Shown: positions 6,338-48,317, counted from the first letter of the stretch. The stretch is 64,000 nt of DNA from Thermoanaerobaculia bacterium (GCA_963666565.1 OY762911.1:1951497-2015496); one strand, 5' to 3'. Numbers and translations are program-made. The notes: generated by a model not told the origin, from the sequence alone.

Positions 6338-6340
6338 TAG

Positions 6341-7048: not shown

Positions 7049-7057
7049 GGCCGGATC

Positions 7058-9060: not shown

Positions 9061-9066
9061 CGGGGG

Positions 9067-9561: not shown

Positions 9562-9708
9562 CGCCTCGGCATCTCCCTTCAAGCGTTGCAGAAACGTGTC
9601 CGCGAGTATTGCCCACCGGCCGGCGGCCGTCAAACGACCCTCACCCGCGTTGTCCGGGCCCGAGGGCCGGTGTAGGCTCGCCATGCCCCTCGACAGTGGA
9701 GAAGAACC

Positions 9709-28947: not shown

Positions 28948-29126
28948 GGGTGCGCGGGTCCTCCGACCCGCTCAGGGGCGAAGCCGCGGAGCGGCGATCC
29001 CGGACAACGAGGGCTCCTGCCCAGGTTCGGCGACGAAGGGGTGCGCGGGTCTTCCGACCCGCAACCGTCCCCGGAGCGGGTCGGAAGACCCGCGTACCCG
29101 GAGCGGGTCGGGAGACCCGCGCACCC
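28948..29126. repeat. Compound MITE/REP-like element (left TIR, 66-bp spacer, then a minimal left TIR-13 bp-right TIR hairpin, then an extra right TIR)
   Basis: TIR units at 28948-28971, 29039-29062, 29076-29099 and 29103-29126. Confidence 0.8.
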
Positions 29127-29127
29127 A

Positions 29128-31919: not shown

Positions 31920-34900
31920 TCACGGCGCCCTCGCCTGATCGTACGCCCGCCTGAACACGACCTCGGACATCCACCGCTTGAAGCCGTCGTTGTCCATGAA
32001 CTGCTTGAACAGCTCAGTGTCGTCCTTCATCACGTTCTGCATCGCGCGGAGCAGGGCCCGGTCGTGCTCGATGCGGGTGTTCTCGCGGTCGGAGTTCCGG
32101 CGAGCGTTGCGAAAGGCCGCGTCGGAGGCGACCCTGGCGGGAATGTCGAACGCGATCATCCGCTGGACGCGGTCTTCGTCCGCCCAATCATCCGCTGGAC
32201 GCGGTCTTCGTCCGCCCATTCGATGCCGCCGAAGTGGTCGTTGAACGCCTTGACGATGTTCGAGAGGTGGTCCAGTTCGGGTTCCGGCCGGTGGCCGTCG
32301 CCGGCGGGGGGCGTCGGCTCGACCTCGGCGTCCTCGTCGGGCAGGAGGATCTTCCGGATCGCCTGTTTCTCGGCCCGGTAGCTGTCCATGTCGACCGCGT
32401 CGAGGATGCCTCGCGCGAGATCCTCCTCCCGCGGCGCCGGCAGCTTCGGGATCAGGAAGTTCAGGAAGATCGACCGCTTCTCCCAGCCGGCGTTCGAGAA
32501 CGGGAGGATGGAGGAGAGGAAGCCGTAGGCGCGCGCGAACGCCTTGGCCTTTCCCTTGAAGTCGACCTGCCCGTCCTCGTCGAGTTCGCTCAGGTAGACC
32601 GCGACGCACTCGTCGAGGATCGGGTCGAGCCGGTCGCGCTCGGCGCCGTCCAGATAGCGCTCGACGAACAGGTCGACCTGCTCCGCCGAACAGACCTGCG
32701 CCGCGTCGAGGCCAGCCTGCAGGTCGTGCAGCCGGTCGGGGTCCGGCTCGTCGGCCAGGATCGTGCCGCGGTAGTAGTTCGCGAACGAGTCGCGGATGAT
32801 CTCCGTGTCGTTCAGGAAGTCGAGCACGAACACGTCGTGCTTGCCGGGGTGCGCCCGGTTGAGCCGCGAGAGGGTCTGCACCGCCTTGATGCCGGCAAGC
32901 GTCTTGTCGACGTACATCGTGTGCAGCAGCGGTTCGTCGTAGCCGGTCTGGAACTTGTCGGCGCAGACCAGGAACCGGTAGGGGTGTTCCCGGATCTTCG
33001 TCGCGATCCGGCTGGACGGGAAGCCGTTGAGCGAGGCTTCCGTGACCCTCGCGCCGCCGTATTCGTGCTCGCCCGAGAAGGCGACGATCGCCCGGTACGG
33101 GCTCTTCCTCGCGTCCAGGCAGTCGCGGATGGCGTGGAAGTACTGGATCGCGCGCTGGACGCCGTTCGTGACCACCATGGCCCGCGCCTCGCCGCCGATC
33201 TTGCGCGGCGCGGCGACCCGGTCGTGGAAGTGGTCCGCCACGATCTCGGCCTTCAGCCGGATGGCGTGGTCGTGCCCCTCGACGAAGCGCCGCAGCTTCC
33301 GCTGCGCCTTCTTGACGTCGAACTCCGGGTCGTCCTCGACGCTCTTTGCGAGCCGGTAGTAGCTCCTGACCGGCGTGTAGTGCTTCAGCACGTCGAGAAT
33401 GAAGCCCTCCTCGATCGCCTGCTTCATCGAGTAGGTGTGGAAGGCGCGGCGCCTGACCGTGCCGTCGGGTTGCGGTTCGGGAACTCCGAAGAGCTCCAGC
33501 GTCTTGTTCTTGGGTGTTGCCGTGAACGCGAAGTAGCTGGCGTTCGACAGCATCTTGCGCGACTCCATCAGGCGGTTGATCCGGTCCTCGTAGGTCTCCT
33601 CCTCGCCGCGGGCGCCGGCTTCGGAGAGGGCGCCCGAGACCGCGGCGCTGGTCCGGCCGCCCTGGCTTGAGTGGGCCTCGTCGATGACGATCGCGAACCG
33701 GCGTCCGCGCTGCTCGTTGCCGATGGCGTCCAGGACGTGGGGGAACTTCTGGATCGTCGTGATGACGATCTTCTTGCCGCCTTCGAGGAACTGGCGGAGG
33801 TCCGCCGAGCGGTCGGCGTGGCCGACGGTGGCGCCGACCTGCGCGTACTGCCTGATCGTGGCGTGGATCTGGCGGTCGAGAATGACCCGGTCCGTGACGA
33901 CGACGATGGAGTCGAAGACCGTGCCGCCGCCGCTTCGTCCCTGGGAGTTCGGGTCGCCGCCGCGCCCGTCCGGCCCGCTCGGTCGATGGTCCTCGGCCTC
34001 TTCGGCGCGCGGCTCGACGTCGCGGTTGCCGCCGCGCCGCTCGAGCCCGATCAGCCGGTGGGCCAGCCAGGCGATCGAGTAGCTCTTGCCGCTGCCCGCC
34101 GAGTGCTGGATCAGGTAGCGCCGGCCCGCGCCGTGCTCGGCCGCGTCGGCCAGGAGCCGGCGGACCACGTCGAGCTGGTGGTAGCGCGGCCAGATCTGCG
34201 TCTTCTTCTTCCGGCCCGTCTTCTCGTCCTTCGATTCGACGATCTGGGCGTAGTTCTCGACGATCTCCGTCAGGCTCTCACGAGTCAGGACCTCGCGCCA
34301 CAGGTAGTCCGCGGCCAGACCGTCAGGGTTGGGCGGGTTGCCGGCGCCATCGTTCCAGCCCCGGTTGAAGGGCAGGAACCAGGACGCCTTGCCTCGCAGG
34401 TGGGTGCAGAAGCGCACCTCCCGCTCGTCCGCCGCGAAGTGGACGATGCAGCGGCCGAACTCGAACAGCTTCTCCCGCGGGTTGCGGTCCTTCCGGTACT
34501 GCTCGACGGCGTCGCTGACCGTCTGCTTGGTCAAGCTGTTCTTCAGTTCGAACGTGACGACCGGCAGGCCGTTGACGAACAGCGCCAGGTCGAGCGCCAG
34601 TTGAGCCCGGTCGCCGCTGTAGCGAAGCTGCCGCGTGACGGTGAAGCGGTTCAGCTCGAAGCGTTGCCGCGCGGCCTCGTTGCCCTCCGACGGCGTGCCG
34701 TAGAACAGCTCCAGATCGTGCGCGCCGTGCCCGATGCCGTTCCGCAGCACGTCGATGGTCCCGCGCTTCGCGATCTCGCCCTGCAACCGGGCGAGGAACT
34801 TCCGCCGCGCCGGCCCGTCCTCGTCCAGGGCCAGGCCGTCCGCGGCGTCGGGCTGCGTGGCTTGGAGGAAGGCCGAGAGCTGGGTGAAATCGACGCAGTA

Positions 34901-35095
34901 GTTCCGGTCGTAGTCGCGGGGGTCGCCGGGGGTCCAGCCGGCGGTGGTGGGGGCCGTGGTGCGGGCGCTGCCGGAGGCGGGGCTCGGTTCGGCCGGTTGG
35001 GGGAGTTCGCCGGGCTTCGGCGGGTCGCAGGGGTGGCCGGTGAGGGCCGTGCAGATGAGGCGCTCGAGGCCGCGTTCGGACGTGTCGGTGGTCAC
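31920..35095 (-). pseudogene. hsdR: Type I restriction enzyme R subunit (HsdR), frameshifted about 75 codons before the native C-terminus by a 32-bp tandem duplication
   Basis: HsdR_N motifs (VVTFELKN), helicase motifs (SAGSGKSYS Walker A, DEAHSSQ motif II) and the C-terminal domain. ORF 32156..35095 ends ...EWADEDRVQRMIGRTKTASSG*. The native continuation ...WADEDRVQRMIAFDIPARVAS... to the stop at 31920 is in another frame (track ORF 31920..32609). Confidence 0.8.
32155..32218. repeat. 32-bp perfect tandem duplication (atcatccgctggacgcggtcttcgtccgccca x2) that frameshifts hsdR
   Basis: Direct reading: copies at 32155-32186 and 32187-32218. 32 is not a multiple of 3, and the duplicated peptide WADEDRVQRMI appears in both reading frames. 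Confidence 0.9.
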
Positions 35096-35134
35096 GTCGC
35101 GTCCGAAGACTCGGCAGGCGACCGGCCCGCTCGC

Positions 35135-36280
35135 TCAGCCGTCACGACCGGCCGCCTCGCGGCGCTTCCCCAGCATGTTCCGATACACCGTGTCGGAAGT
35201 CGCCTTGACGTCCTCGGTGATGTCCAGCAGCGATTCGTCCTGGCCGTCGTAGGCCCGGAGAGAGCCGACAGCGTCGCGCATGGCGCTGCGCGCTTGCAGA
35301 AGGGACACGAGGAAGCGCCGGTCCATCGGTTCGGTGGCCGCGTGCGCCTGGTGCAGGGCGTATCCGGCTGCCAGGAGTTCCCGTGCCTCTGCGTGCGGAA
35401 GGACTTCTCCGAGCCGTTTGATGTCGGGGTTCATCGCGTGGACCGCAGGCGGGATGTCGCCTTGCCTCGAGCCGTAGATCCAGAGGAGCACCTCTCGAAG
35501 ACAGTCCAGCTTCTCCGCGGGGACGGGGTCGGGCCGCGGTTCGTCCGGCGGCCAGGTACGTGCCAGCCCGAGGTACTCCCGGTACTGCGAACGCGAGAGG
35601 GCGACGTACAGATGAGCGAAGCTGAACTTCGGCGTGTAGCGGTCCTCGATGTCGAACAGGCCCTCCCTGACTGCCTGCTCCAGTACGTAGACGGCGGACA
35701 CCATCCGCTTGACCGCGCCGTGGCGGTCGCCGAGCGCGCTGGCGATTCGCTCGATGCCGACGTCCCCTTCCCGGTACCAGTCCGTCGCGAACCGCGCCTT
35801 GGCGTAGGCGCTCCACTTGGCGGCGCCGTTGATGTGCTTGAAACCGATGAACGCCCGCGCATCCTCGCGCTTCGCGACCCGATAGACCGTCACCTCGTCG
35901 AGGGTGTGGCGGAGCGAATCCCGGACCTCGGGCACCGTGATCTGGAGCTTCTTCTCGGGGAAGATCCTGCCCGCCAGCCTGCTCGCCAACTCCGGCTCCC
36001 GCAAGAGCCTGAGCGCTGCGAGGCGGCGATTCCCCTCAAGGACGATCAACTCGTCGCTGCCGGCGGCGCCCATCGCGACCAGCGGTTCGATGTCGAGGTA
36101 GCCGTTCGTCGAGATCGACTGAAGCAGTTCGTCGAGTCCCGCGGAGTAGAGCCGGGCGATGATCGACTCCTCCGTGGCTCGCCTCCCTCGATCCGGGAAT
36201 CTCGGAGCCTCGCGGTCCAGGCGGAGTCGCTCGACGGGGACCTTCGCCGCCGTCCCAACTCGTGACTGCGCCTCGTGCAT
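35135..36280 (-). CDS. ParB/Sulfiredoxin-fold (ParB-like nuclease domain) protein, encoded 40 bp upstream of hsdR on the same strand
   Basis: ParB N-terminal domain signature (DELIVLEGNRRLAALRLL; compare the ParB GERRxRA box), then about 250 aa of helical sequence. ATG at 36280. The track ORF 35135..36352 is slightly longer. Confidence 0.6.
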   Translation of the reverse strand: MHEAQSRVGTAAKVPVERLRLDREAPRFPDRGRRATEESIIARLYSAGLDELLQSISTNGYLDIEPLVAMGAAGSDELIVLEGNRRLAALRLLREPELASRLAGRIFPEKKLQITVPEVRDSLRHTLDEVTVYRVAKREDARAFIGFKHINGAAKWSAYAKARFATDWYREGDVGIERIASALGDRHGAVKRMVSAVYVLEQAVREGLFDIEDRYTPKFSFAHLYVALSRSQYREYLGLARTWPPDEPRPDPVPAEKLDCLREVLLWIYGSRQGDIPPAVHAMNPDIKRLGEVLPHAEARELLAAGYALHQAHAATEPMDRRFLVSLLQARSAMRDAVGSLRAYDGQDESLLDITEDVKATSDTVYRNMLGKRREAAGRDG

Positions 36281-36399
36281 GACGCCGGCTATCTTAGACG
36301 CAGGGGCCCGTGGGTGTCGCGGTGGCCAGTGAACCCGGCTCCAGGTCGGCAAGTGCCCAGGGCGTCACCTTTGGCCCGGCAGCTTCCGCAGACGAGAAG

Positions 36400-39300
36400 A
36401 TGTGCATGGACTTGGAGACTGCACCCCGCGGTTCAACGGTGGTGTACTGTCTCGCCTTCCGTGACCTTGGAGGAACGAGGTGGGGGTGCTTGCCGGCGCG
36501 CCGGCGAACTTTCCGGCCCGAGTACGTCGAGATGCCGTTACCAGGAGGGCCCGCTGCCAAGCTCGGTATCCGCTACGAGAAGTGGTGGACGCTCTCGGAG
36601 TTCGTTCGAATGCTCCACGGAGAGACAGACTCGATTCGGCTGGAGGAGCCCGGTCTTGATGCAGCAGAGTTCGTTGTGAGGAACGGCTCGCAGCGCGAGT
36701 TTCATCAGGTAAAGCGCCGCAACCCGAGCGGGAAGTGGAGCTTGCCAGCGCTTAAGTCCGAAGGTGTTCTTCAAGCGATGGGGCGGAGGCTGGCCAACAG
36801 CGCCGACTGCTTTGTCTTCGCATCAAGCTCTGACGCGCCGGAGCTCTCCGATCTGTGTGACACCGCTGGCGGATCAGCTTCAATCGAAGAGTACCGACGG
36901 GTCTTCCTCAAAGCCGACTCGCGCCGAGAGCCCTTTGACGAGCTGCGCCGAGCGTGGGGCTGCAGCCTTGAGGAGACGTTCAATCGGCTGCGGCGAATCG
37001 AGGTCAGTACGATCAACGAGCGCGAACTGCGAAAGACCGTCGAACGAGGGTTGCGGGCACTCTTCATCTCGAACCCGGCCGACGTGGAGAAGACGCTACT
37101 GGCGATGGTCGATGACTCCTTGCATCAGACCCTTACACGCCAGGGACTTAGGGAGACCCTCACCCGTAGCGGCTACCAGATGCGGCACCTCAACAACCCA
37201 GAGGACGCGGCCGGGGCCGTACGACGAGCGACCGATGATCACTACCTCGTGAGGGCCCAGAAGCGGCTCATTCAAGAGCGACTCGTTCCAACGGACGCCG
37301 CAAGGGTGGTGCTTTCTCGCCTGGGCGAAACGTCGACGGACCTTGTCCTGGTTGGGAAGGCCGGCGTCGGCAAGACGGCCTGTATCGTTGAGGTAGTGCG
37401 CGCCTTGCGAGAGCAGCGCGGTATGCCAGTCTTGGTCTTTCGCCTCGATCACCATACGTCGGCACGGTCCACTAGAGAGATTGGCCAGCAGTTGGAACTG
37501 GAGGAGTCGCCCGCGTTCGTTCTGGCCGCCGCAGCGGAGTCCGCGAACCGGTCTGGCGTTCTGATCGTGGATCAGTTGGACGCGGTCAGCACGATGCCTG
37601 ACAGGGGGTCCGGCGCTCTTGATGTGGTTGAGGCGCTGCTTGACGAGACCCGAGGCCTTCGGGCGCGGGTTCCCGTTCACACGATAGTCGTGAGTCGGGA
37701 GTTCGATTGGGAGCACGACCCGCAGCTTAGGGGGCTTGCCGCCAAGTCCGCGGGGCCGGTCAAGGTCACGGAGTTCCATGTGGCCCAGGTCAAGGAGATC
37801 CTGGCGGACGCTGGTTTCGATCCGACACTCTTCGGGGAGAATCAACTCCAGGTCCTACGGCTCGCGCAGAATTTGTCGCTGTTCTTGGACACCGGTTTCT
37901 CTGCCTCCTGCGCTCCGGCGTTCCGCACGGCCAAGCACCTGTTCGACCGATACTGGTCCTACAAGCAGCGAGTGGTTGACAGGAGAGCGGGGAATCTAGC
38001 GGGCCGCTGGACCGAGATCGTGCGGAGGGTCTGCGACGAGATGACGTCGTCTCAGCGTCTCGCGGTTCCGAAGGAGAGGCTCGACGAAGTGCCAGAGGAC
38101 TATCTGCAACAGATGGCGTCGGAGGGCGTGCTGACGTTCGACGGCCACTGCTACGGCTTCGGGCACGAGAGCTTCTTCGACTATTGCTCCGCGCGTCTGT
38201 TTTGCGGCCGGTCGGAGCGACTTGTGTCGTTGTTGACGGGTGCAGAGCAGCATCTTTTCCGACGTTCCCAGGTGCGCCAGGTTCTGGTCTACCTTCGCGA
38301 CGAGGACTTCCCCAGGTACGTGGAAGAGGTTGGTGAGCTCCTCTCGGATGAGGGGATTCGCGTCCACATCAAGCATCTTGTGTTCGCGCTCTTGGCTGGT
38401 GTCGAGGAGCCGAGGGCTGAGGAGTGGGCGATCTGGGAGACGTGGATCGGACCAGAACTGAAGGCGATCGAGGCCGATGCACAAGGTCAGAACGCGTTGT
38501 CGGCCCTCGCGTGGCGGTCGTTCTTCGTTGCAGGCTCGTGGTTCCGCATCGCCGATGACCGCGGGAAGGTCGAGGAGTGGCTTGGCGGCCGTGGAGACCA
38601 GCTCGGCGACTTGGCGGTGAGATACCTCTTGGCGCATCATCGCCACTCGCCTGATCGAGTCTCGGCTCACCTCAATCCGTATGTCGACTCCGGCGGTCGG
38701 TGGCCCCAACGCTTTCTGTACTTCATGGGGCGCGTCCAGCACGGCGCCAGCAGATCACTCTTCGAGCTGTTTCTCCGTTTGGTGGACAACGGTGTACTGG
38801 ACGATGGCCGGGCGATGTTCGCCTCCAACGAGACGTTCTGGGACATGCTCCGGGATCTGAAGGAGGATCGGCCGGAGTGGATTGCTGAGGCGCTCGCCCA
38901 CCGGCTCCGACGCCGGCTACGACTCCGCCTTGAGGACGATTCGGACGCCTATCCAGGACGGCTCCTGGGCAACCACGGCTCGGGCTCCCGCGTGTTTGTG
39001 AAGTCGGCTGCGAACGCTCCCGCTGCGTATGTGAAGCACGTCCTGCCGGCGGTGCTTGAGGTCGTCGATTCGACGGTTACGGGGGAGAAACCGCCGAGGC
39101 GGGATACGGTTTGGTTTCTCCTTCACGAGTTCAGCCATCTCAGTGCCGACGAGACATGTCTGAAGTGCCTCGGCCAAGCGCTGGCGACGGTGGCTCAGGT
39201 CGATAGAAGATCGGCAAGAGAGCTGATTGCCGACTTGCGAGGGCGAGATAGCCACACGGCGAACTACCTGCTATTGGCGCTCTATCGGGGGGAGCCAACC

Positions 39301-41046
39301 CGGTATGCCGACGAGGCAATGTCACTGCTGTGTGAGGAACCCTGGCGACTTGAATGCGGCGCAGGCGGTAACGGATGGTGGTACGCGATGGAGACGATCC
39401 GGGCGACCTTTCCTCACTGTTCTGCGCCCACACGTGCGAGGCTCGAGGCACTGATTGTCGGACATGCCGACTGGTTTGAGCGGACCAAGGAAGGCCGACA
39501 ATCGGAGGGTCGTGCTCGGTTCGCCCTCCTTTCGGCAATCCCTGCGGATCTCCGCGGCAGGCAAGCGCATAAGCACTTTCAGGAGTTGGAGCGGAAGTTC
39601 GGGGAACCTCCGGGGAAACCACGCGGGCCGGAGGGCGGTCTCGTTGGGCCTCCGATACCTGCCGAGTCCACCGTCAAGATGACGGATCAGCAGTGGCTTC
39701 GGGCCATCGCGAAGCACTCCGCCGAGTGGTCGCCTCGCCGTTATTCACGGAACATACAGAAGGGCGGTGCGCGGGAATTGGCGGGAACTCTGGTCGAACG
39801 CACCCAGGAGGAACCAGAGCGGTTCGCTCGTCTGTGCCTGCGTTTCCCGGCCGATGCGAACCCCGCCTATCTCGACGGCGTCTTGTCTGGCCTGAAGGAG
39901 GCTTCGATAGCGAATGAGTTGAAGCTCCAGGTCTGCCGCAAGGCGTTCGGTGAGGCTTTCGATTACTGCGGTCAGTCGGTAGCGGACGTCCTCGGTGGCC
40001 TTGAGTCTCCAGTCCCGGCGGAGGCCATGGGGATGCTTGACCGGCTTGCGACTGAGCACAGTGATCCCAGTTCGGAGGCGTGGCAGAAGAAGACGGCGGA
40101 CGGTCGTCGAGTCTTCAACGGCGACATCTACTGGAGCGGTATCAACTCGACACGTGGACAGACAGCCCTTGCGGTCGCCAAGCTCATCTCTGCGGACGAC
40201 TCGTGCCTGACGCCGTTCCGGCCGACCCTTGATCGGATGGTCGAGGACGAAAGCCCGGCCGTCGTTTCTTGCGTCATTGGCACGCTCTTGGCCGTTGCCT
40301 ATCACGAGCCCAAACTCGCGCTGCGGCTCCTCGGAAGAACGAACCTGTCCGAGGTCCGGCTGCTCGCTACTCGGCACGCTCGACATCTTCTTCACGGCAC
40401 CCTGCATCGGAACTTCGACCAGGTCCGCCCGTTTCTCAAGCGCATGATTCAGTCGTCGGAACCGGAGGTCTGCCAAGCAGGCGCTCGCTTGCTCAGCGTC
40501 GCGGCGCTGAGCCACGAAGGAGCGGCGGAGCTTGTAGCGCGGTGTCTCGGGGGCAGCGCCGCCCACCGGCTCGGTGTGTGCGAGGTGGCCGCTGCCAACG
40601 TGGCCGACTCGGAGTGTGGGGCGTGGTGCGAGCGAACCCTCTCGGAACTGTTCGATGACGCCGATGCCAATGTCCGAAAAGAGGCTGCGACCTGCTTCCG
40701 GCATGTCGAGAACGAACCGCTCGAAGAGTACGCGGACCTGGTCCAGGCGTTCTGTAGCAGCAGGGCCTATCGCGACGACCCGTTCTGGCTGCTCGACGTC
40801 TTGGAGACGGTGCGAGGTCGACTGCCGGGCGTAACGATCATGGCCTGCGAACGGTTCTTCGACCGATTCGACGGGCTTGAGCAAGGCCGGACTCGTGGGC
40901 TCCGTACGATTGTCAAGCTGATCTTCCGGGCGTACCAGCAGTACGAGCAAGAGAGTTGGGGTCAGCGGTCACTGGATCTCATCGACAGACTCTGTCTTGA
41001 AGGCATCTACGAGGTCGGAAAGGAACTCGATCACTTTGATCGGTAG
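36400..41046 (+). CDS. Giant P-loop NTPase (NACHT/STAND-like) with an N-terminal putative PD-(D/E)xK-like domain and about 1000 aa of C-terminal alpha-helical repeats; candidate antiphage Avs-like protein
   Basis: Walker A LVLVGKAGVGKTACIV, then Walker B VLIVDQLDAV (hhhhDxxD, NACHT-like), about 70 aa downstream. The N-terminal region carries a D...(E/Q)xK pattern (LEEPGLDAAEFVV...REFHQVK). The long C-terminal region is ARM/HEAT-like helical with no enzymatic motif. Start is ATG at 36400 or 36406, or GTG at 36310. Confidence 0.6.
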   Translation: MCMDLETAPRGSTVVYCLAFRDLGGTRWGCLPARRRTFRPEYVEMPLPGGPAAKLGIRYEKWWTLSEFVRMLHGETDSIRLEEPGLDAAEFVVRNGSQREFHQVKRRNPSGKWSLPALKSEGVLQAMGRRLANSADCFVFASSSDAPELSDLCDTAGGSASIEEYRRVFLKADSRREPFDELRRAWGCSLEETFNRLRRIEVSTINERELRKTVERGLRALFISNPADVEKTLLAMVDDSLHQTLTRQGLRETLTRSGYQMRHLNNPEDAAGAVRRATDDHYLVRAQKRLIQERLVPTDAARVVLSRLGETSTDLVLVGKAGVGKTACIVEVVRALREQRGMPVLVFRLDHHTSARSTREIGQQLELEESPAFVLAAAAESANRSGVLIVDQLDAVSTMPDRGSGALDVVEALLDETRGLRARVPVHTIVVSREFDWEHDPQLRGLAAKSAGPVKVTEFHVAQVKEILADAGFDPTLFGENQLQVLRLAQNLSLFLDTGFSASCAPAFRTAKHLFDRYWSYKQRVVDRRAGNLAGRWTEIVRRVCDEMTSSQRLAVPKERLDEVPEDYLQQMASEGVLTFDGHCYGFGHESFFDYCSARLFCGRSERLVSLLTGAEQHLFRRSQVRQVLVYLRDEDFPRYVEEVGELLSDEGIRVHIKHLVFALLAGVEEPRAEEWAIWETWIGPELKAIEADAQGQNALSALAWRSFFVAGSWFRIADDRGKVEEWLGGRGDQLGDLAVRYLLAHHRHSPDRVSAHLNPYVDSGGRWPQRFLYFMGRVQHGASRSLFELFLRLVDNGVLDDGRAMFASNETFWDMLRDLKEDRPEWIAEALAHRLRRRLRLRLEDDSDAYPGRLLGNHGSGSRVFVKSAANAPAAYVKHVLPAVLEVVDSTVTGEKPPRRDTVWFLLHEFSHLSADETCLKCLGQALATVAQVDRRSARELIADLRGRDSHTANYLLLALYRGEPTRYADEAMSLLCEEPWRLECGAGGNGWWYAMETIRATFPHCSAPTRARLEALIVGHADWFERTKEGRQSEGRARFALLSAIPADLRGRQAHKHFQELERKFGEPPGKPRGPEGGLVGPPIPAESTVKMTDQQWLRAIAKHSAEWSPRRYSRNIQKGGARELAGTLVERTQEEPERFARLCLRFPADANPAYLDGVLSGLKEASIANELKLQVCRKAFGEAFDYCGQSVADVLGGLESPVPAEAMGMLDRLATEHSDPSSEAWQKKTADGRRVFNGDIYWSGINSTRGQTALAVAKLISADDSCLTPFRPTLDRMVEDESPAVVSCVIGTLLAVAYHEPKLALRLLGRTNLSEVRLLATRHARHLLHGTLHRNFDQVRPFLKRMIQSSEPEVCQAGARLLSVAALSHEGAAELVARCLGGSAAHRLGVCEVAAANVADSECGAWCERTLSELFDDADANVRKEAATCFRHVENEPLEEYADLVQAFCSSRAYRDDPFWLLDVLETVRGRLPGVTIMACERFFDRFDGLEQGRTRGLRTIVKLIFRAYQQYEQESWGQRSLDLIDRLCLEGIYEVGKELDHFDR

Positions 41047-41176
41047 GTAGGGAGGATGCGGCATCTTGGCCGTTCTGTCGGCCGATGGCCGTTGTAAGGC
41101 GGAACGGATGGCGACGTGAGGCAGTGTGCGCCGGGGCAGGTCTTGACTGCTTGCCGGCCCGGGCAGAGGAAGCGCC

Positions 41177-42550
41177 TCAGGGGAGCGCAACGGCCGTGTG
41201 GCGCACGTCAAGCTTCCCGGTGACCGCGTCGGCAGTCACTCGTGCGCGGAACTCGCTGAGAAGGGCGATGTGGCGGTGCGTGCGGTCGATTGCGGCTGCG
41301 TGTCGGTCCGTGACTTTCCGGCAGAACTGCGCGATGGCGACCTGCTCGGGCGGCGGTGGCAGGCAGACGCGCAACCGCGAGACGATTTCGGCATTCAGGT
41401 TGGACATCGTAGAGCCGACCGATGCGAGTTCGAGTGCATCGCGGGTGCGTGACGAGTTCAGAACGAGAAGGAGGTAGTCGGGCGAACAGACCGTCTTTCT
41501 TGCCCGGAGTCGCAGGCTGCCAGTACCGCAGATCCAGCCTGCTTGGGCGGAACGCACCAGGGCGGAGCGACCGACTTCGCCGCGCCGGGCGATGACGACG
41601 TCGCCAGTAGCGAGTCGGTGCCTTGAGAGTTCCGCCGCCTTCCGTCCGGTGACGGCTATGGAGCGATCTGGCGCTATCCTGCCTTCGCTCAGGTGCGACG
41701 GATTGATGACGGGAACGCCGCCGTCGATGTACTCGTCGGCATGGAGTTGACTACCGAACGGCCCGGTCTGAATCGAGTTCGACGCTGTGCCAAGTGCAAG
41801 TTCAGGCCAGTGCGCCGGCACTTCCGTCAGCCATTCGACCTCCGATTCCTTGTATTCGAGATAGGGCTGGCCGGTCCGGACGTCGATCTGGCCGGTGACG
41901 GCCTGATGCACGATGGCCTGTTGCTGCTCCTCCAGCAGCCCGATCAGCTTCTCCTTCTTCCGAATGGCCCGACGGATGTGCCGGTCGATGTAGTCGAGAA
42001 AGCGGGCGATGGCGGTCTGTTCGGCTAGCGGAGGCAGCGTTAGCGGCAGGTCTCGCCAGCGTTCGGTTGGAAGCCTGCGCGTGCCATGCCCTGCTTCGTC
42101 GATCAGAGGAAACAGGCCGTCGCGAGCGCAAGCGAGGAACGACGCCAGATAGGCCGCGTTGAGCGCGGGACAGGGGCGTAGGGCTTTCATGTCCTGGTTG
42201 ATCGTTACCGGCGAGGTCGTTCTGGCGATGGGCACTCTGCGGGCAAGGATCATTCCGCGGACGACCATGAGCACGGCGGGAGGCTGAACCAACCGAAGTG
42301 CGGTTTCGGCGAGTGCGGCGTCTGTGACCCGCACACGCGAATCGCCGATCACCATGGTCTTCATGTCCTTCGGCGTGACCCATGGAATGTCGCCGTTCCA
42401 GAAGCGACCGTCTTCCATGCTGGGCGTCATTCCTCCCGAGATCGAGGCGCATTGCCGGAGCTTCCTCATCTTCCAATGCGCCGGTACCTCGCCCAGCCAC
42501 TCCACGCCGGAGTCCTCGTACTCGCTGTAGGCCTCCAGCGCGTGCGTCAT
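41177..42550 (-). CDS. hsdS: Type I restriction-modification specificity subunit (HsdS), two target-recognition domains
   Basis: Two TRDs are separated and followed by conserved coiled-coil regions (LAEQTAIARFLD..., PPPEQVAIAQFC...). The ATG at 42550 overlaps the upstream stop (ATGA). Confidence 0.85.
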   Translation of the reverse strand: MTHALEAYSEYEDSGVEWLGEVPAHWKMRKLRQCASISGGMTPSMEDGRFWNGDIPWVTPKDMKTMVIGDSRVRVTDAALAETALRLVQPPAVLMVVRGMILARRVPIARTTSPVTINQDMKALRPCPALNAAYLASFLACARDGLFPLIDEAGHGTRRLPTERWRDLPLTLPPLAEQTAIARFLDYIDRHIRRAIRKKEKLIGLLEEQQQAIVHQAVTGQIDVRTGQPYLEYKESEVEWLTEVPAHWPELALGTASNSIQTGPFGSQLHADEYIDGGVPVINPSHLSEGRIAPDRSIAVTGRKAAELSRHRLATGDVVIARRGEVGRSALVRSAQAGWICGTGSLRLRARKTVCSPDYLLLVLNSSRTRDALELASVGSTMSNLNAEIVSRLRVCLPPPPEQVAIAQFCRKVTDRHAAAIDRTHRHIALLSEFRARVTADAVTGKLDVRHTAVALP

Positions 42551-42903
42551 TCCTCGGACTGCTCGGCAGGTACCTTGGGTTCAATGGCTGGCTCGCTCTC
42601 GCCATGCCACCTTGTGCGTTCCATGAATCGGCGGAGGATGGGGTCCGTTGGGCGATAGTCCCGTATCCAGGCGTTGATCTCGCCGTTGGTCATGTCTTCG
42701 AACTTCCTGCTGAGGCGTTTCCGTTGCTCCCGCTCGTAGGCGACGCAGTCGAAGTCGTTCTCCTCTCTCTTGGCCGTCACTCCACCGGGGCCTTTCTGAC
42801 GCCCGAGTCCGCTACGAGGCGAAGCGGAAGGAGCTTGGCTCTCGGCGACCGCTCCCAGATACGACGGAGGATGGGGTCCGTGATCTCCCGGTTGTTCCTC
42901 CAC
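42547..42903 (-). pseudogene. Remnant of the PIN-gene 3' region (tail domain only), translationally coupled to hsdS
   Basis: ...FDCVAYEREQRKRLSRKFEDMTNGEINAWIRDYRPTDPILRRFMERT is homologous to the C-terminal tails of the PIN copies. Its stop overlaps the hsdS ATG. Confidence 0.35.
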
Positions 42904-43511
42904 TCCACCTGCTCCTCGGGAGTCATGGCTTCTAACTTCCGACTGATGCGGTCCCTCTGCTCGCGCACGAAGCCGACGCAGTCGAAGCTCTTGTCGTTCG
43001 GGTCGCGGAAGTTCTCGCCCAGGATGGCCGGAGGCTCGTACATCTTGATCCGGGGATGACCGAGTTCCCGGTTGACGGCGTCGAACTTGGGCCCGCGGCG
43101 GAAGTTCAGCAGGTGCTTGTAGTTCCAGCTCGCAAGCATGTCGACGTTTGCGAGCGTGGCGAAGGCGACGTGCAGGGCGGCGGGTCGCGCGGCCGGGTCC
43201 AACGCGCCCGCCTCGATGTAGCGGTCGGCGAGTTCCTCGGCTGCTCCCGACGGCTCCAGGAGCTCCGAGTGCTCCCGCGGCACCGTACCTAGCAGCGCTC
43301 TCGCGGCCTCGGTCGCCGCGTCCAACTCGCCCACGACCGCGGCCGACAGGACGAGGGTCATGTCGGCGGCACGGAACCCCTCGAACAGAGCCCGGGACGA
43401 CTCCCTGATCCAGTACTTCTCGTCCTCGCAGGCGGAGAACACGGAGGAGTCGACGTACACGCGGGGCGTTTCCGGCCAGGACGGAACCGGGTACGTCGTC
43501 TCAGCGGTCAT
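42777..43511 (-). CDS. PIN-domain nuclease-like protein with a C-terminal extension (distal copy C)
   Basis: PIN signature: N-terminal Asp (RVYVDSSVF), the acidic residues, and the C-terminal T/SxNxKH-type motif (NVDMLASWNYKHL). The ATG overlaps the stop of an hsdM C-terminal fragment. Confidence 0.6.
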   Translation of the reverse strand: MTAETTYPVPSWPETPRVYVDSSVFSACEDEKYWIRESSRALFEGFRAADMTLVLSAAVVGELDAATEAARALLGTVPREHSELLEPSGAAEELADRYIEAGALDPAARPAALHVAFATLANVDMLASWNYKHLLNFRRGPKFDAVNRELGHPRIKMYEPPAILGENFRDPNDKSFDCVGFVREQRDRISRKLEAMTPEEQVEWRNNREITDPILRRIWERSPRAKLLPLRLVADSGVRKAPVE

Positions 43512-43690
43512 CGTCCACCTCTTTCGACGGACCGGGCGCCATGCCGCCCATGATCTGGGCCAGCAGGCCGTCGGTCATCGTCTCCAGCGTCAGGCTGTCA
43601 GCCTGGAACTCCGCCAGCGGCCGCATGGGCTCGGGCCTGTAACAGTAGCGGTCGAAGCCGATCTCGTAGCGGGTCTTCATGGTGACTGGA
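43501..43690 (-). pseudogene. Duplicated hsdM 3' terminal fragment (encodes the last ~59 aa of HsdM)
   Basis: MKTRYEIGFDRYCYRPEPMRPLAEFQADSLTLETMTDGLLAQIMGGMAPGPSKEVDDDR aligns to the HsdM C-terminus (VKTSYEISFNRYFYKPEPMRPLAEIQADILALETQTEGLLAEIMGGMVPGPSKEVDDDR). Confidence 0.6.
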
Positions 43691-44130
43691 GTTGTACCAC
43701 GCATCGGCGGCTCAGGGCACCGCCTCGCGGCGCGGCAACGCCTTGATGCCGCCGTTCTTCGATCCCTGTCGCGGAGGTTCGCCGCGGTCTTGTTCGGCCG
43801 CGCCAGCAGGCGGCCCAGCGGTTCAGGCCGGGAGATCGTGATCCTCGGAGGGCGTGTCCTGCACGCTGGCATTGCGATCCCGCAGGCGCTCGACAAGACG
43901 CCGCAGCTTCGGGTCTGTCGGTAGGTAGTTGCGCATCCAGGCGCCTATCTCGTCGCTGCTCATGCCTTCGAGCTCCTTGCCGGCCGCGGCGATCACGGCC
44001 GCCGCAGCCAGCCTCAAAGCCTCGAACCGGCTCAAACCGTCTAGACACGCGCAACGGTCGCGGGCCTCGCCTTGCCGGCGACCGCCCGGCCAAGCACTGC
44101 GGCGAGGGACCGTGATCGCTCAGACAGTGG

Positions 44131-44475
44131 TTAGCGGAGATGCTCGCGCAGAGAAGCGCCGGGCTTCGGCCAGTCGTACCACGATTCCCAGAACACGCCC
44201 TTTGTCCCGCTTTCGCGTCGCGTACACCCAAAGTGCAGGCGGGTCCCCTCAAGGTATCCGCTGACGCGGTGCGGCTTGTCAGTAACGACGTCCAAGCCGA
44301 ACCCCGTCGCGCTCTCTATCCCCGCGAGACAGCTTGCGAGCGTCGCCCGCTCGGCACCCATTGTGATCGTTGACGACTCGCCGCCGCACGCGACGACCAC
44401 AGCGAAGCCGACGCTCACGACCGCTACTAGCGCCAAGCGGCGCACGTTCCCTAGCGCTTTCTCCATGAAAGCCAA
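44131..44475 (-). CDS. Small putative lipoprotein (114 aa) inserted within the degraded middle PIN copy
   Basis: Signal peptide with lipobox (LALVAVVSVGFAVVVACGG). The sequence is unrelated to the PIN module. Confidence 0.4.
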   Translation of the reverse strand: MAFMEKALGNVRRLALVAVVSVGFAVVVACGGESSTITMGAERATLASCLAGIESATGFGLDVVTDKPHRVSGYLEGTRLHFGCTRRESGTKGVFWESWYDWPKPGASLREHLR

Positions 44476-44987
44476 AGCGTATCACGCGGACCGCGACCGC
44501 GGCCGGGAGCTTCTTCCGCTGCTCGCGCTGGAAGGCGGCCTGCAAGGCGATGGGTCCCGTCGCCGCATCCACCGCGCTCCCTTCGACGTAGCGGTCGGCG
44601 AGTTCCTCGGCTGCTCGCGACGGTTCCAGCAACTCCGAGTGCTCCCGCGGCACTTTGTTTGGCAGGGCTCTCGCGGCCTCGGTCGCCGAGTCCAACTCGC
44701 CCGCGACCGCGGCCGACAGGACGAGGGTCACGTCGCCGGCACGGAAACCCCTCGAACAGAGCCCGGGACGACTCGCTGGTCCAGTACTTCTCGTCCTCGC
44801 AGGCGGAGAACACGGAGGAGTCGACGTACACGCGGGGCGTCTCCGGCCAAGACGGAACCGGGTACGTCGTCTCAGCGGTCATCGTCCGCCTCCTTCGACG
44901 GACCGGGCGCCATGCCGCCCATGATCTCCGCAGGCCCTCGGGCTGCGGCTCCAGGCTGTCAGCCTGGATCGCCGCCAGTGGCCGCAT
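44279..44987 (-). pseudogene. Degraded PIN-domain gene (middle copy B), frameshifted and with its central part replaced
   Basis: The N-terminus MTAETTYPVPSWPETPRVYVDSSVFSACEDEKYW (track ORF 44451..44987) goes out of frame. The middle (track ORF 44279..44731) matches the PIN central region (MTLVLSAAVAGELDSATEAARALP...), then diverges. Confidence 0.5.
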
Positions 44988-45176
44988 GGGCTCGGTTCTC
45001 TAGTAGCGGTTGAAGCTGATTTCGTAGCCGGTCGTCACGATCCTGGAGTTGTACCACGCGTCGGCGGCTCAGGGCACCACCTCGCGGCGCGGCAGGCCTT
45101 GCTGCCGCCGTTCTTGGATCCGTGTCACGAAGACTCGCCTCGACTCTGTTCGGCCGCCAGCAGGCGGCCCAGCGGT

Positions 45177-45902
45177 TCAGGCCGGGAGATCGTGATCCTG
45201 GGAGGGCGTGTCCTGCACGCTGGCATCGCGATCCCGCAGGCGCTCGACCAGGCGCCGCAGCTTCGGGTCTGTCGGTAGGTAGTTCCGCGTCCAGGCACCG
45301 ATCTCTTCGCTGGTCATGCCTTCGAACTCCTTGCCGAGCTTCTTCCGTTGCTCGCGCATGAAGCCGACGCAGTCGAAGCTCTTGTCATTCGGGTCGCGGA
45401 AGTTCTCGCCCAGGATGGCCGGAGGCTCGTACATCTTGATCCGGGGATGACCGAGTTCCCGGTTGACGGCGTTGAACCTGGGCCTGCGGTAGACGTTCAG
45501 GAGGTGCTTGTGGTTCCAACTCGCGAGTGTGTCGACGTTTGCGAGCGTGGCGAAGGCGACGTGCAGGGCGGCGGGTCGCGCGGCCGGGGCCACCGCGCCC
45601 GCTTCGATGTAGCGGTCGGCGAGTGCCTCGGCTGCTCGCGACGGTTCCAGAAACTCCGAGTGCTCCCGCGGCACCGTACCTGGCAGGGCTCTTGCGGCCT
45701 CGGTCGCCGAGTCCAACTCGCCCGCCACCGCGGCCGAGAGGACGAGGGTCATGTCGCCGGCACGGAACCGCTCGAACAGAGCGCGAGACGACTCCCTGAT
45801 CCAGTACTTCTCGTCCTCGCAGGCGGAGAACACGGAGGTGTCGACGTAGATGCGGGGTGTTTCCGGCCAGGGCGGTACCGGGTACGTCGTCTCAGCGGTC
45901 AT
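45177..45902 (-). CDS. PIN-domain nuclease-like protein with a C-terminal extension (proximal copy A, coupled to hsdM)
   Basis: The same PIN motifs as copy C (IYVDTSVF...NVDTLASWNHKHL), with a distinct C-terminal tail (...GAWTRNYLPTDPKLRRLVERLRDR). The ATG overlaps the hsdM stop. Confidence 0.65.
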   Translation of the reverse strand: MTAETTYPVPPWPETPRIYVDTSVFSACEDEKYWIRESSRALFERFRAGDMTLVLSAAVAGELDSATEAARALPGTVPREHSEFLEPSRAAEALADRYIEAGAVAPAARPAALHVAFATLANVDTLASWNHKHLLNVYRRPRFNAVNRELGHPRIKMYEPPAILGENFRDPNDKSFDCVGFMREQRKKLGKEFEGMTSEEIGAWTRNYLPTDPKLRRLVERLRDRDASVQDTPSQDHDLPA

Positions 45903-47910
45903 CGTCCACCTCCTTCGACGGACCGGGCACCATGCCGCCCATGATCTCGGCCAGCAGACCCTCGGTCTGCGTCTCCAGGGCCAGGATGTCGGCCTGGATC
46001 TCCGCCAGCGGCCGCATTGGCTCGGGCTTGTAGAAGTAGCGGTTGAAGCTGATCTCGTAGCTGGTCTTCACGGTTCTGGAGTTGTACCACGCATCCGGGG
46101 CCCAGGGCAGGACCTCGCGGCGCAGAAAGGCCTCGATGCCGCCGTCCTCCTGGAGCGGGATCTGCTCGGTGTCGCGGAGGCTCGTGTCCGGCTCGTACTC
46201 GACGACGGCGGTCCGGCCATCGACCTTCGCCTCGAACAGGCCGCGCAGCGGGTCGGCGGCGACGCCCCGCTTGTGGACCTTCCGGATCACCGGCGGCGCC
46301 TCTTCGCCCTCGCCGCGGACGCCAGTGGCCTTGAGTCCGCGGATCTCGGCGGCCTTGTAGGCGCGGCACCCGTCGATTCCCTCGATGCGGAGCGGCCGCT
46401 CGACGGTGACCTTCCAGTAGCCGAAGGCCTCGTTGTCGAAGACCTTGCTTTCCTCGGTCTCCTCGAAGGCGAGGAAGGCGTCGCAGATGCGGGCGATGTC
46501 CTCGTCGCCGAGTTCGCAGTTCTTCTTGCCGAGGTTCTTGCGCAGCGGCTGGAACCGCTTCGTGGCGTCGATGAGCTGCACCTTGCCCCGGCGGTGCTCC
46601 GGCTTGCGGTTCGTCAGCACCCAGACGTAGGTGGCGATGCCGGTGTTGTAGAACATGTTGAGCGGCAGGGCGACGATCGCCTCCAGCCAGTCGTTCTCGA
46701 CGATCCAGCGGCGGATGTTGCTCTCGCCCTGGCCGGCGTCGCCGGTGAAGAGGGAACTGCCGTTGTGGACCTCGGCGATCCGGCTGCCGAGCGGCGTGTT
46801 CCGCTTCATCTTGGCGAGCTTGTTGGCCAGGAAGAGCATCTGCCCGTCGCTGCTGCGGGTGACGAGGGAGAACTCCGGGTCGCCGCCGTGCTCGATCAGG
46901 AACCGCGGGTCGCGCATGTCCTTCTTGCCGCCCATGCGCGCGAGGTCCGTCTTCCAGCTCTTGCCGTAGGGCGGGTTGGAGAGCATGAAGTCGAACTCGC
47001 GGGCCGGGAAGGCGTCGTTCGAGAGCGTGGAGTGCTCCGGCCCGCCGACGATGTTGTCGGCGGCCGCTCCCTCGCCCTTGAGGAGAAGGTCGGCCTTGCA
47101 GATGGCGTAGGTCTCGGCGTTGATCTCCTGGCCGAAGAGGTGCGTGGAGACCTCCTTGCCGCGCTCGGCGGCGAGCGACTGGAGCACGTCCTCGGCCACG
47201 GTGAGGATGCCGCCGGTGCCGCAGGCGCCGTCGTAGAGGGTGTAGGTGGCGGACCGGAGTCGGTCGGCCACGGGCAGGAAGACGAGGTTCGCCATCAGCT
47301 TGACCGCGTCGCGCGGCGTGAAGTGCTCGCCGGCCTCCTCGTTGTTCTCCTCGTTGAAGCGGCGGATCAGTTCCTCGAAGATCGAGCCCATGCCGTGGTT
47401 GTCGAGGCCGGGGTGCTTCACGCCGCCGTCGCCGTCCGTCACCGGCTCGGGGCCCAGGTTGATGTCGGGCGAAGTCAGCTTCTCGATCAGCGTGCCGAGC
47501 GCGTCGGCCCGCGAGAGCCGCGGGATCTGGTTGCGGAACTCGAAGTTCTCGAGGATGTCCTGGACGTTCGGAGAGAAGCCGTCGAGCCACGCCTCGAAGT
47601 CGGCCCGGAGCCGCTGCCGGCCGGCGCGGGCGCGCAGGTCGCGCAGCGTGTAGCTGGACGTGTTGTAGAAGTCCTGCTTCGCCGCGTCCCGCAGGGTGGC
47701 GTCCTGGTCGACGATCTCGAGTTCGTCGAGAGTTGCCTTCACCTGCAGGACGTGCTGCTTGCGCGGCTCCAGCACCGCGTCGAGCCGCCGCAACAGGGTC
47801 ATCGGCAGGATGACGTCGCGGTACTTGCCGCGGACGTAGAGGTCGCGGAGGACGTCGTCGGCGATGCCCCAGATGTAGCCGGTGATCCAGCTCAGGGAGG
47901 CGTTGTCCAC
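45892..47910 (-). CDS. hsdM: Type I restriction-modification N6-adenine DNA methyltransferase subunit (HsdM)
   Basis: HsdM_N (IWGIADDVLRDLYV...DVILPMTLLRRLD), an AdoMet motif (YDGACGTGG) and the catalytic NPPY (LSNPPYG). Confidence 0.9.
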   Translation of the reverse strand: MDNASLSWITGYIWGIADDVLRDLYVRGKYRDVILPMTLLRRLDAVLEPRKQHVLQVKATLDELEIVDQDATLRDAAKQDFYNTSSYTLRDLRARAGRQRLRADFEAWLDGFSPNVQDILENFEFRNQIPRLSRADALGTLIEKLTSPDINLGPEPVTDGDGGVKHPGLDNHGMGSIFEELIRRFNEENNEEAGEHFTPRDAVKLMANLVFLPVADRLRSATYTLYDGACGTGGILTVAEDVLQSLAAERGKEVSTHLFGQEINAETYAICKADLLLKGEGAAADNIVGGPEHSTLSNDAFPAREFDFMLSNPPYGKSWKTDLARMGGKKDMRDPRFLIEHGGDPEFSLVTRSSDGQMLFLANKLAKMKRNTPLGSRIAEVHNGSSLFTGDAGQGESNIRRWIVENDWLEAIVALPLNMFYNTGIATYVWVLTNRKPEHRRGKVQLIDATKRFQPLRKNLGKKNCELGDEDIARICDAFLAFEETEESKVFDNEAFGYWKVTVERPLRIEGIDGCRAYKAAEIRGLKATGVRGEGEEAPPVIRKVHKRGVAADPLRGLFEAKVDGRTAVVEYEPDTSLRDTEQIPLQEDGGIEAFLRREVLPWAPDAWYNSRTVKTSYEISFNRYFYKPEPMRPLAEIQADILALETQTEGLLAEIMGGMVPGPSKEVDDDR

Positions 47911-48260
47911 TTCAGTCGGCTCGCTCGGCGGGCGGAGGCGTCATCTGTCGCCGCGGACCCAGTCCAGCAGCGCCATGACTTCGCGTGCGGCAACCGGTGC
48001 TCCTTTGGCGGTCGCGTGTAGACGACGGCGGCGTTTGGCTTGCCGAGACGGACCTCGCCTGCCTGCGCCTGCCGGATCAACTCGGCGTCGGGGTCGGGCG
48101 GCTCGGCTGGCCAGTGCTCGGCTTCGTATGCCTCGACGAGGGCGACGAGGACTTCGAGTTCGTCTCCCTCGGGCGTGCCCGGCGCGGCGCCCATCAGACG
48201 GTCGACGGCCTTCAGTGCCTCCTCGTAGTCCCTCTCGTTCCTGATCGCCTTGATCTTCAA
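47892..48260 (-). pseudogene. HigA-like antitoxin N-terminal fragment (HTH region not recognisable); overlaps the hsdM start by 19 nt
   Basis: The first ~55 aa (MKIKAIRNERDYEEALKAVDRLMGAAPGTPEGDELEVLVALVEAYEAEHWP) match the conserved N-terminal region of HigA-type antitoxins. The remainder lacks the expected HTH. Confidence 0.35.
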
Positions 48261-48317
48261 GTTGGCCTCCCGACTCGTCTGGCTGGACGGGATGCGTGGG
48301 GCGTGAGTCTACGGCGT

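Follow-up and report, generated by a model that had tools for sequence, protein, structure and literature searches.

The window analysed here is a stretch of 64,000 nucleotides (nt) from a Thermoanaerobaculia bacterium (GCA_963666565.1 OY762911.1:1951497-2015496), and it carries a type I restriction-modification (R-M) operon, namely hsdM, hsdS and hsdR, on the minus strand. All three genes were recognised by their domains in Pfam, PADLOC and NCBIfam, and the identities given to them in a preliminary description of the window were right. The interpretation that we favor, and that we regard as likely though by no means certain, is that of an inherited composite type I island, in which a unit carrying a PIN-fold gene was amplified long ago and hsdR was frameshifted recently; this assessment extends to the consequences that we deduce from these events. 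The locus is a real but largely ordinary composite island, with an uncharacterised PIN-fusion component.

Island layout and the truncated hsdR gene

The order hsdM, PIN genes, hsdS, cargo genes and hsdR is standard in more than 25 related loci of this R-M lineage (the loci sharing the layout are L001-L015, L017, L024, L041-L046, L050, L054, L061 and L084). The nearest relatives are mostly sponge-associated metagenome-assembled genomes (MAGs) labelled Candidatus Multivorans, Thermoanaerobaculia, Vicinamibacteria or Acidobacteriota, and the layout is also found in Pseudohongiella, Longimicrobiales, Ca. Poriferihabitans and other Gammaproteobacteria MAGs. Between hsdM and hsdS, arrays of PINa, C-terminal fragments and PINb are common, e.g., in L007-L015, L044 and L045. 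Between hsdS and hsdR the cargo varies: it is DarT/Macro in L003, and a ParB-fold protein, a 332-aa protein and an N6_N4 methyltransferase in L001. The cargo of the window, an NTPase gene on the opposite strand followed by a gene for a ParB-fold protein, recurs in the same interval in L093-L097 and L098, i.e., in at least three other lineages. The preliminary description had taken the accessory genes as a sign that the operon was rearranged. Because relatives share the layout, we conclude instead that the interleaving was inherited and is not a rearrangement of this genome. Type I operons with embedded accessory genes are known already (PrrC, the vapBC genes of Mycobacterium tuberculosis); here the embedding has a fixed layout across several phyla of mostly sponge-associated MAGs.

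Within this layout, hsdR is disrupted, as had been claimed. Tandem Repeats Finder (TRF) reports, at 32155-32218, a period of 32 nt in 2.0 copies with 100% match and a score of 128. The duplication ends one base past the stop codon of the 979-aa hsdR open reading frame (ORF); on the coding strand, the second 32-nt copy shifts the frame after residue 970, and TGA follows nine codons on. When one copy is deleted, the ORF extends to 1047 aa, ends at 31920, and aligns end to end with the HsdR proteins of relatives at 79-89% identity. A single 32-nt copy is present in all 20 related loci that cover the site, with no length variation there; the contig of L098, the closest strain found, stops inside hsdR before the site is reached. 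The truncated protein has the Pfam domains HSDR_N, SWI2_SNF2/ResIII and T1R_D3, and its residues 1-970 include GSGKS, DEAH and the D..ELK nuclease motif. That is, the nuclease and helicase motifs of a type I HsdR are there, and the protein falls short of full length by its last 77 residues, which are conserved. The gene also differs from the 1000-1002-aa HsdR of L001, L006 and L093 by an insertion of about 45 codons at 33931-34026, which remains unaligned in blastn.

The two other subunits appear intact, in agreement with the preliminary description. HsdM matches HsdM_N (5.9e-20) and N6_Mtase (1.8e-50) in Pfam and MTase_I (1.2e-233) in PADLOC, contains both the NPPY catalytic motif and the DGACGTG S-adenosylmethionine motif, and is 94% identical to its relatives across the full length, residues 1-672. 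HsdS has two Methylase_S stretches in Pfam and matches the PADLOC profile Specificity_I over residues 5-452 (4.9e-86). From the truncation of its conserved tail, HsdR is probably unable to restrict. With hsdR broken but hsdM and hsdS of full length, the earlier proposal that modification may persist while restriction is lost is a reasonable one: the predicted state is restriction-minus and modification-plus, in which an HsdM2-HsdS1 complex would still methylate its target.

The 32-bp duplication is the only recent rearrangement at the locus. Repeated recent rearrangement had been proposed, and this holds for the duplication alone, the larger repeats next to hsdM (see below) and the HigA-like fragment being old. 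The latter is present and does overlap the start of hsdM, as described earlier; only residues 1-57 of its 122-aa ORF fit a HigA-like profile (PADLOC PD-Lambda-2_B, 2.8e-13), and neither a helix-turn-helix (HTH) nor any other Pfam domain was found in the ORF at E<=0.01. An equally truncated ORF, 62% identical, is found in L003 and L005, and because these loci carry the same truncated form, the fragment must be an old remnant and not a recent one.

Related islands have decayed as well, and do so repeatedly at one chromosomal site. L009 and L013 are without hsdR, and in L095-L097 hsdM is truncated and hsdS is split. L009 and L013 keep remnants of hsdM and PIN genes beside an SDF gene (see below), and L013 is also without hsdS. 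In L098, an insertion sequence (IS; HTH_Tnp_1 and rve) lies at 1941-3424, between the orthologue of PIN-3 and hsdS, and the NTPase gene, at 5234-9671, is split into ORFs of 865 and 455 aa. Together with the hsdR frameshift of the window, the IS, the split NTPase and the truncated hsdM or hsdS of relatives illustrate the erosion of such islands.

The PIN-gene array next to hsdM

Three copies of a repeat unit adjoin hsdM, at 45112-46145 (unit 1), 43756-45111 (unit 2) and 42777-43755 (unit 3). The founding unit, 45112-46145, comprises the 3'-terminal 243 nt of hsdM followed by the PIN gene and a 65-nt spacer, and the start of PIN-1 overlaps the hsdM stop by 11 nt. Self-BLAST aligns 42958-43755 with 45349-46145 (91.1% identity), 43161-43982 with 44531-45336 (88.1%), and 44531-45111 with 45552-46145 (86.6%). 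A further fragment, at 42641-42754, is 77% identical to 45265-45378, and its 42689-42754 part is 80% identical to 42922-42987. Thus, three copies and an extra fragment exist, as described earlier for a recent triplication of about 0.9 kb, but the unit measures about 1.03 kb and the copies, with an overall identity to one another of 86-93%, are not recent. Orthologous segments of other genomes share 92-93.5% identity with unit 1, whereas units 3 and 2 share only 91.2% and 88.3% with it. Because the divergence between copies equals that between genomes, the triplication cannot be recent, and a recent in-genome triplication was rejected on these grounds.

The two inter-unit junctions share identical breakpoints, which suggests that a single founding duplication expanded through unequal crossing-over. 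Identity along the units is mosaic: in the N-terminal part of PIN, units 2 and 3 agree at 96-97%, and unit 2 has the C-terminal type of unit 1, at 94% identity. Intact proteins are encoded by unit 1 (PIN-1, 241 aa) and unit 3 (PIN-3, 244 aa). Unit 2 is a pseudogene, with a frameshift, a deletion of about 60 codons, and a 548-bp insert (43983-44530) that has no homologue in any related locus compared. Divergence within the units is greatest in the dead hsdM fragments (83-89% identity); that of unit 3 (43512-43755) is 84-88% identical to functional hsdM 3' ends, and its translation loses the frame upstream. L098 is 97.4% identical to the window over the ParB-fold gene, the NTPase gene and hsdS. 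Its orthologue of PIN-3 (93.8%) is preceded by an 84-nt hsdM remnant, i.e., part of one junction is shared, and a PINa gene stands at the position of units 1 and 2 of the window. Within the 548-bp insert, at 44131-44475, there is an ORF of 114 aa with a lipoprotein-like N-terminus and a G+C content at third codon positions (GC3) of 0.77; it has no homologue in the related loci compared and no Pfam match.

The encoded proteins have a PIN fold. The AlphaFold2 (AF2) model of PIN-1 has a predicted local distance difference test (pLDDT) score of 81.7, and the top Foldseek matches of this model are VapC toxins (E 2e-4 to 1e-3, probability 1.0). The PIN proteins of the window have no Pfam match at E<=1 and none in PADLOC or NCBIfam, and a PDB sequence search with a PIN profile gave no meaningful match; stand-alone homologues of 152 aa clear the Pfam cut-offs of PIN and PIN_3. 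In loci without any hsd gene, such a 152-aa PIN ORF is followed by an ORF of about 69 aa, with a typical overlap of 8 nt. The last ~70 residues of PIN-1 and PIN-3 are homologous to this ~69-aa protein (E down to 3e-16), for which neither Pfam nor NCBIfam has a family. We conclude from this homology that the window PIN proteins are fusions of a toxin-first two-gene module. In PINa, the paralogue adjacent to hsdM, the partner is kept as a separate ORF in the +1 frame. The resulting evolutionary series leads from a two-gene PIN and small-protein pair, via a module behind hsdM, to a fused version without an otherwise invariant Asp; if the fused form is functional, a toxin-antitoxin pair would have been turned into an R-M accessory.

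This Asp, part of a D-A-L-H motif, was surveyed across 85 loci. Among the non-fused matches that cover the position, i.e., stand-alone PINs and hsdM-adjacent PINa paralogues, it is kept in all but one of about 65, the exception being a weak second match in L045. In the fused PINb clade it is replaced by Ala or Val in 17 of 17 copies; the residue is Ala111 in both PIN-1 and PIN-3. Because the lost Asp is invariant elsewhere and lies in the helix that precedes strand 4, we infer that it supplies the third acidic residue of the PIN catalytic site. Asp21, Glu62 and Asp124 are conserved in the PIN copies. Compared with VapC toxins, therefore, the fold is present and the acidic active site is incomplete, as far as the mapping of Ala111 to the canonical site can be inferred. 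Nor was a separate cognate antitoxin gene found: hsdM lies directly upstream, and the sole partner-like sequence is the fused C-terminal domain. The PIN domains have nonsynonymous to synonymous ratios (dN/dS) of 0.25-0.86. Between PIN-3 and PIN-1, the PIN domain has a dS of 0.126 and a dN/dS of 0.48, and the C-terminal part has a dS of 1.66. The C-terminal domains fall into two classes, a and b, with dS >1 between them; the nearest matches are in L084 for that of PIN-1 and in L086 for that of PIN-3. The "three and a half PIN modules" of the preliminary description hold as to the PIN fold, the three units and the extra fragment; they are fusions in which the invariant Asp is replaced, however, not modules of the ordinary VapC type. 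The PIN genes are thus old fused toxin-partner relics and not classical VapC toxins, and, judging by the fusion and the lost Asp, the proteins are probably not active VapC-like RNases.

Interpretation, alternatives and known systems

The history that we propose would begin with an inherited composite island typical of sponge-associated Acidobacteriota, with two built-in slots. The slot from hsdM to hsdS always holds PIN-family genes whose start overlaps the hsdM stop. That from hsdS to hsdR holds exchangeable defence cargo, with swaps among DarT/Macro, methyltransferase modules, and the pair found here, namely a ParB-fold protein resembling PD-lambda-5_A and, encoded on the opposite strand, an Avs-like P-loop NTPase. 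In an old event, the 1.03-kb unit would have been amplified in tandem; recombination or gene conversion, together with decay, would later have altered its copies. What remains would be two intact PIN genes that differ in their C-terminal cassettes, a PIN pseudogene and two nonfunctional hsdM fragments. In a recent event, the 32-bp duplication would have frameshifted hsdR, removing the conserved tail. The single-chain PIN-partner fusions would more likely be neutralised regulatory or sensor accessories of the methyltransferase than toxins.

Several points weigh against this history. Amplification in situ and stepwise import of diverged cassettes are not cleanly separable by comparison of the copies. 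The loss of HsdR function is deduced from the truncation of its tail, and an error in assembly or consensus calling may yet explain the 32-bp duplication. When Shigella VapC was aligned with MAFFT, its D98 fell three columns off the invariant Asp, so that the equivalence of this Asp to the catalytic Asp of VapC is putative. Asp124, which is invariant in a 30-sequence alignment and nearly so across loci, could sustain catalysis. Lastly, a dN/dS of up to 0.86 leaves room for PIN genes that may be becoming pseudogenes.

It is possible, if on balance doubtful, that the extra hsdM'-PIN units were imported singly from diverged relatives, through recombination anchored in the conserved 3' end of hsdM. 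Orthologues in other genomes are at least as similar to the copies as the copies are to one another, the two classes of C-terminal domain are nearest to different loci and separated by dS >1, and in L098 a PINa gene takes the place of PIN-1 and PIN-2. The identical breakpoints at both junctions, however, are the signature of one founding duplication and unequal crossing-over, and the near-identity of the N-terminal parts of PIN-2 and PIN-3 is that expected of crossover or gene conversion within the locus. That the duplications arose in assembly, and that the locus is in truth an unbroken, ordinary type I system into which other genes are embedded, strikes us as distinctly improbable. A perfect 2.0-copy repeat of 32 nt is the kind of feature that a consensus error could create, and the relatives all have one copy; but the 1-kb copies, which differ by 7-14% and have distinct indels, an insert and distinct C-terminal cassettes, are unlike collapse or duplication artefacts, and the hsdM'-PIN-3 junction is partly present in the independent assembly of L098. 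We see a very slim chance that the 32-bp duplication is a reversible ON/OFF switch, which would make restriction phase-variable and leave modification constant. Tandem duplications can revert through slippage or recombination between the copies, restoring the frame, and hsdM and hsdS are intact. Against this, TRF and a repeat search found no simple-sequence repeats in the hsd genes, a second hsdS and inverted hsdS repeats are absent among the repeats found, no recombinase domain was detected in the island ORFs scanned, and none of the 20 relatives varies in length at the duplication site. The suggestion that the system is phase-varied accordingly finds no support. Because related islands decay in many unrelated ways, i.e., by truncated hsdM, split hsdS, an IS or loss of hsdR (L009, L013, L095-L097, L098), plain erosion fits better than a switch. 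An invertible or cassette-switching hsdS system was likewise rejected, as there is one hsdS and the repeats by hsdM are all direct.

For the PIN copies themselves, it is unlikely that they are active VapC-type toxins, either as addiction modules that would stabilise the island or as PrrC-like abortive-infection effectors freed upon inhibition of the R-M complex. Their fold, the VapC toxins as best structural matches, the conserved Asp21, Glu62 and Asp124, the coupling of the start to the hsdM stop, and the embedding in a type I operon, as for EcoprrI prrC (PMC12707154) and M. tuberculosis vapC21, all speak for activity. However, the Asp invariant elsewhere in the family is lost from every fused copy, the putative partner is fused in cis without a separate antitoxin gene, constraint is relaxed, and profile matches to the proteins are absent from PADLOC, Pfam and NCBIfam. 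A more speculative and rather improbable reading is that the hsdM-coupled gene is, throughout this widespread R-M lineage, a domesticated toxin-partner fusion in which a disabled PIN site is linked to a cassette-like, fast-evolving C-terminal domain, serving as a fourth, regulatory or phage-sensing component of the methyltransferase; cassette arrays (a, b) would then broaden sensing, and in relatives the fused copies would control active PINa as their effector.

Fused toxin-antitoxin proteins with a role in defence are exemplified by CapRel(SJ46). As in that protein, a toxin fold and a partner-derived C-terminal domain, the most variable part, form one chain in the window PIN proteins. The toxin fold is a different one, however, the toxin site of the window proteins looks degenerate, and phage sensing is not indicated for them. 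In M. tuberculosis, hsdM and hsdS are separated by four genes, all of which we take to belong to vapBC modules. There, vapC21 (Rv2757c) is among the genes that lie between hsdM (Rv2756c) and hsdS (Rv2761c) (PMC12430009, PMC7517352). Common to both loci are PIN/VapC genes between hsdM and hsdS in a type I system that lacks restriction or, in the window, is predicted to lack it. Each M. tuberculosis module is a conventional two-gene vapB-vapC pair in which the antitoxin precedes the toxin. In the window, by contrast, the toxin leads, its partner is fused to it, the otherwise invariant Asp is missing, the PIN start is tied to hsdM, and the genes form arrays with hsdM fragments; the first four of these traits set the window type apart, the coupling to hsdM extending across many taxa.

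In the EcoprrI system, a type IC R-M locus, the accessory gene prrC lies between hsdS and hsdR. It is the textbook example of an accessory gene embedded in a type I system (PMC12707154). The PIN genes of the window resemble it in standing within the hsd operon, and such a position makes a functional link to the R-M complex plausible. PrrC is an ABC-ATPase-like anticodon nuclease, whereas the window gene encodes a PIN-fold fusion, lies between hsdM and hsdS, has no sequence similarity to PrrC, and has an incomplete acidic active site; PrrC-type ATPase or anticodon-nuclease domains were not matched in the PIN proteins by any PADLOC, Pfam or NCBIfam profile. Among the papers searched, none joined 'PIN domain' with the type I R-M terms used, and none matched all terms on 'Candidatus Multivorans'.

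Cargo genes, feature table and surroundings

The true start of the NTPase is Met75 of its long ORF (36532), as indicated by alignment to P0195, and the protein is a member of a large family of ~1500-aa proteins. Its match to PF00004 (AAA), 25.2 bits, is above the cut-off of 21.2, and there are matches to AAA_22 and AAA_16 too; NACHT, at 17.9-19 bits, stays below its cut-off of 26.7, as do nSTAND1 and AAA_16, and HEAT matches are weak. Matches in PADLOC are weak (PDC-M54A, 5e-16 over ~130 residues; Avs2, 0.002). The N-terminus matches LmuA weakly (E 0.0036) and nothing in Pfam or NCBIfam, with no meaningful PDB sequence match. The protein had been described as a giant NACHT-like NTPase on the opposite strand; a P-loop NTPase of 1504 aa is indeed encoded on the plus strand, but the NACHT label is not established. 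It resembles Avs/STAND NTPases and the PADLOC candidate PDC-M54 in combining a putative N-terminal effector, a P-loop NTPase and C-terminal helical repeats, and it differs from them in that its profile matches are weak and those to NACHT and nSTAND are below cut-offs.

The neighboring protein matches PD-Lambda-5_A in PADLOC (2.2e-18 over residues 35-191 of a 405-aa ORF). Its AF2 model has a pLDDT of 77, with Foldseek matches to ParB/Noc at 5e-5, and an EGNRRL motif, in keeping with the GxxR-type motif of the ParB/Srx fold, is invariant in 31 homologues. The family has more than 1600 homologues, is without a Pfam domain, and is found elsewhere beside methyltransferase, SIR2 or UvrD genes; the window protein has no NCBIfam match and no meaningful PDB sequence match. 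Of the earlier label, "ParB-like nuclease protein", the ParB/Noc-like fold stands and the nuclease part is not established. PD-lambda-5 was described by Vassallo et al. 2022 as a 'compacted RM+Abi' system (PMC9519451). The 381-aa window protein fits PD-Lambda-5_A over its N-terminal ~160 residues, and a homologue neighbors a methyltransferase in L001 and L092, in line with that description. The window differs in that the match is confined to the N-terminal ParB-like part and that no partner or methyltransferase gene of PD-lambda-5 is found between 35135 and hsdR or elsewhere with the ParB-fold protein in the window. In L001 (12554-15767) and L092 (8001-11169), the ParB-fold protein, a protein of ~320-330 aa and an N6_N4 methyltransferase form a three-gene block, which occurs both inside and outside type I loci and may be an R-M-like system related to PD-lambda-5.

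The features of the island are collected in Table 1; genuine genes were told from many spurious ORFs by GC3 framing.

Table 1. Features of the type I R-M island, in window coordinates
Feature	Coordinates	Strand	Evidence and remarks
HigA-like N-terminal fragment ORF, 122 aa	47892..48260	-	PADLOC PD-Lambda-2_B; overlaps hsdM start
hsdM, 672 aa, apparently intact	45892..47910	-	Pfam HsdM_N and N6_Mtase; PADLOC MTase_I
PIN-1, 241 aa, PIN fold and partner-derived C-terminal domain of type a	45177..45902	-	AF2, Foldseek
Repeat unit 2: hsdM 3' fragment (44883-45111) and PIN-2 pseudogene (43823-44882)	43756..45111	-	Self-BLAST
hsdM 3' fragment of repeat unit 3, decayed, initial part out of frame	43512..43755	-	
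PIN-3, 244 aa, PIN-fold fusion with type b C-terminal domain	42777..43511	-	Self-BLAST
Additional C-terminal (partner-derived) domain fragment between PIN-3 and hsdS	42641..42754	-	Self-BLAST
hsdS, 457 aa, two target-recognition domains	41177..42550	-	Pfam Methylase_S; PADLOC Specificity_I
P-loop NTPase, 1504 aa, C-terminal HEAT-like repeats, possible nuclease-like N-terminus	36532..41046	+	Pfam, PADLOC
ParB/Noc-fold protein, 381 aa, PD-Lambda-5_A-like N-terminus	35135..36280	-	PADLOC, AF2, Foldseek
hsdR truncated ORF, 979 aa (970 native and 9-aa frameshifted tail)	32156..35095	-	Pfam
Perfect 32-bp tandem duplication frameshifting hsdR	32155..32218	.	TRF, direct sequence reading
hsdR remainder, out of frame, encoding the lost C-terminal 77 aa	31920..32155	-	Deletion of one copy restores the frame

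Synteny with relatives extends to flanking DUF1501, SDF and Sod_Cu genes. In the window, the SDF gene (sodium:dicarboxylate symporter; 48318-49526) lies between DUF1501 and the island; in L001, L005-L007, L010 and L012 it follows hsdR and precedes Sod_Cu (19154-20413 in L001/L006). Homology of the SDF gene breaks exactly at the gene ends, which implies that one of the two, the SDF gene or the island, has changed place as an exact block. A promoter and terminator scan of 41000-48400 and a tRNA scan of the entire window gave nothing useful, and no integration-site evidence. The G+C content of the window is about 70% and falls to 62-64% at 36-43 kb, i.e., over the NTPase gene and hsdS (36000-43000), with surroundings at 68-72%; this drop is consistent with exchanged cargo and specificity genes. 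An intergenic region at 29028-29137 holds 2.3 tandem copies of a 27-nt sequence, which overlap a set of nested inverted repeats with arms of 24-35 nt that are 83-96% complementary, and these repeats could be a terminator or a REP-like (repetitive extragenic palindromic) element.

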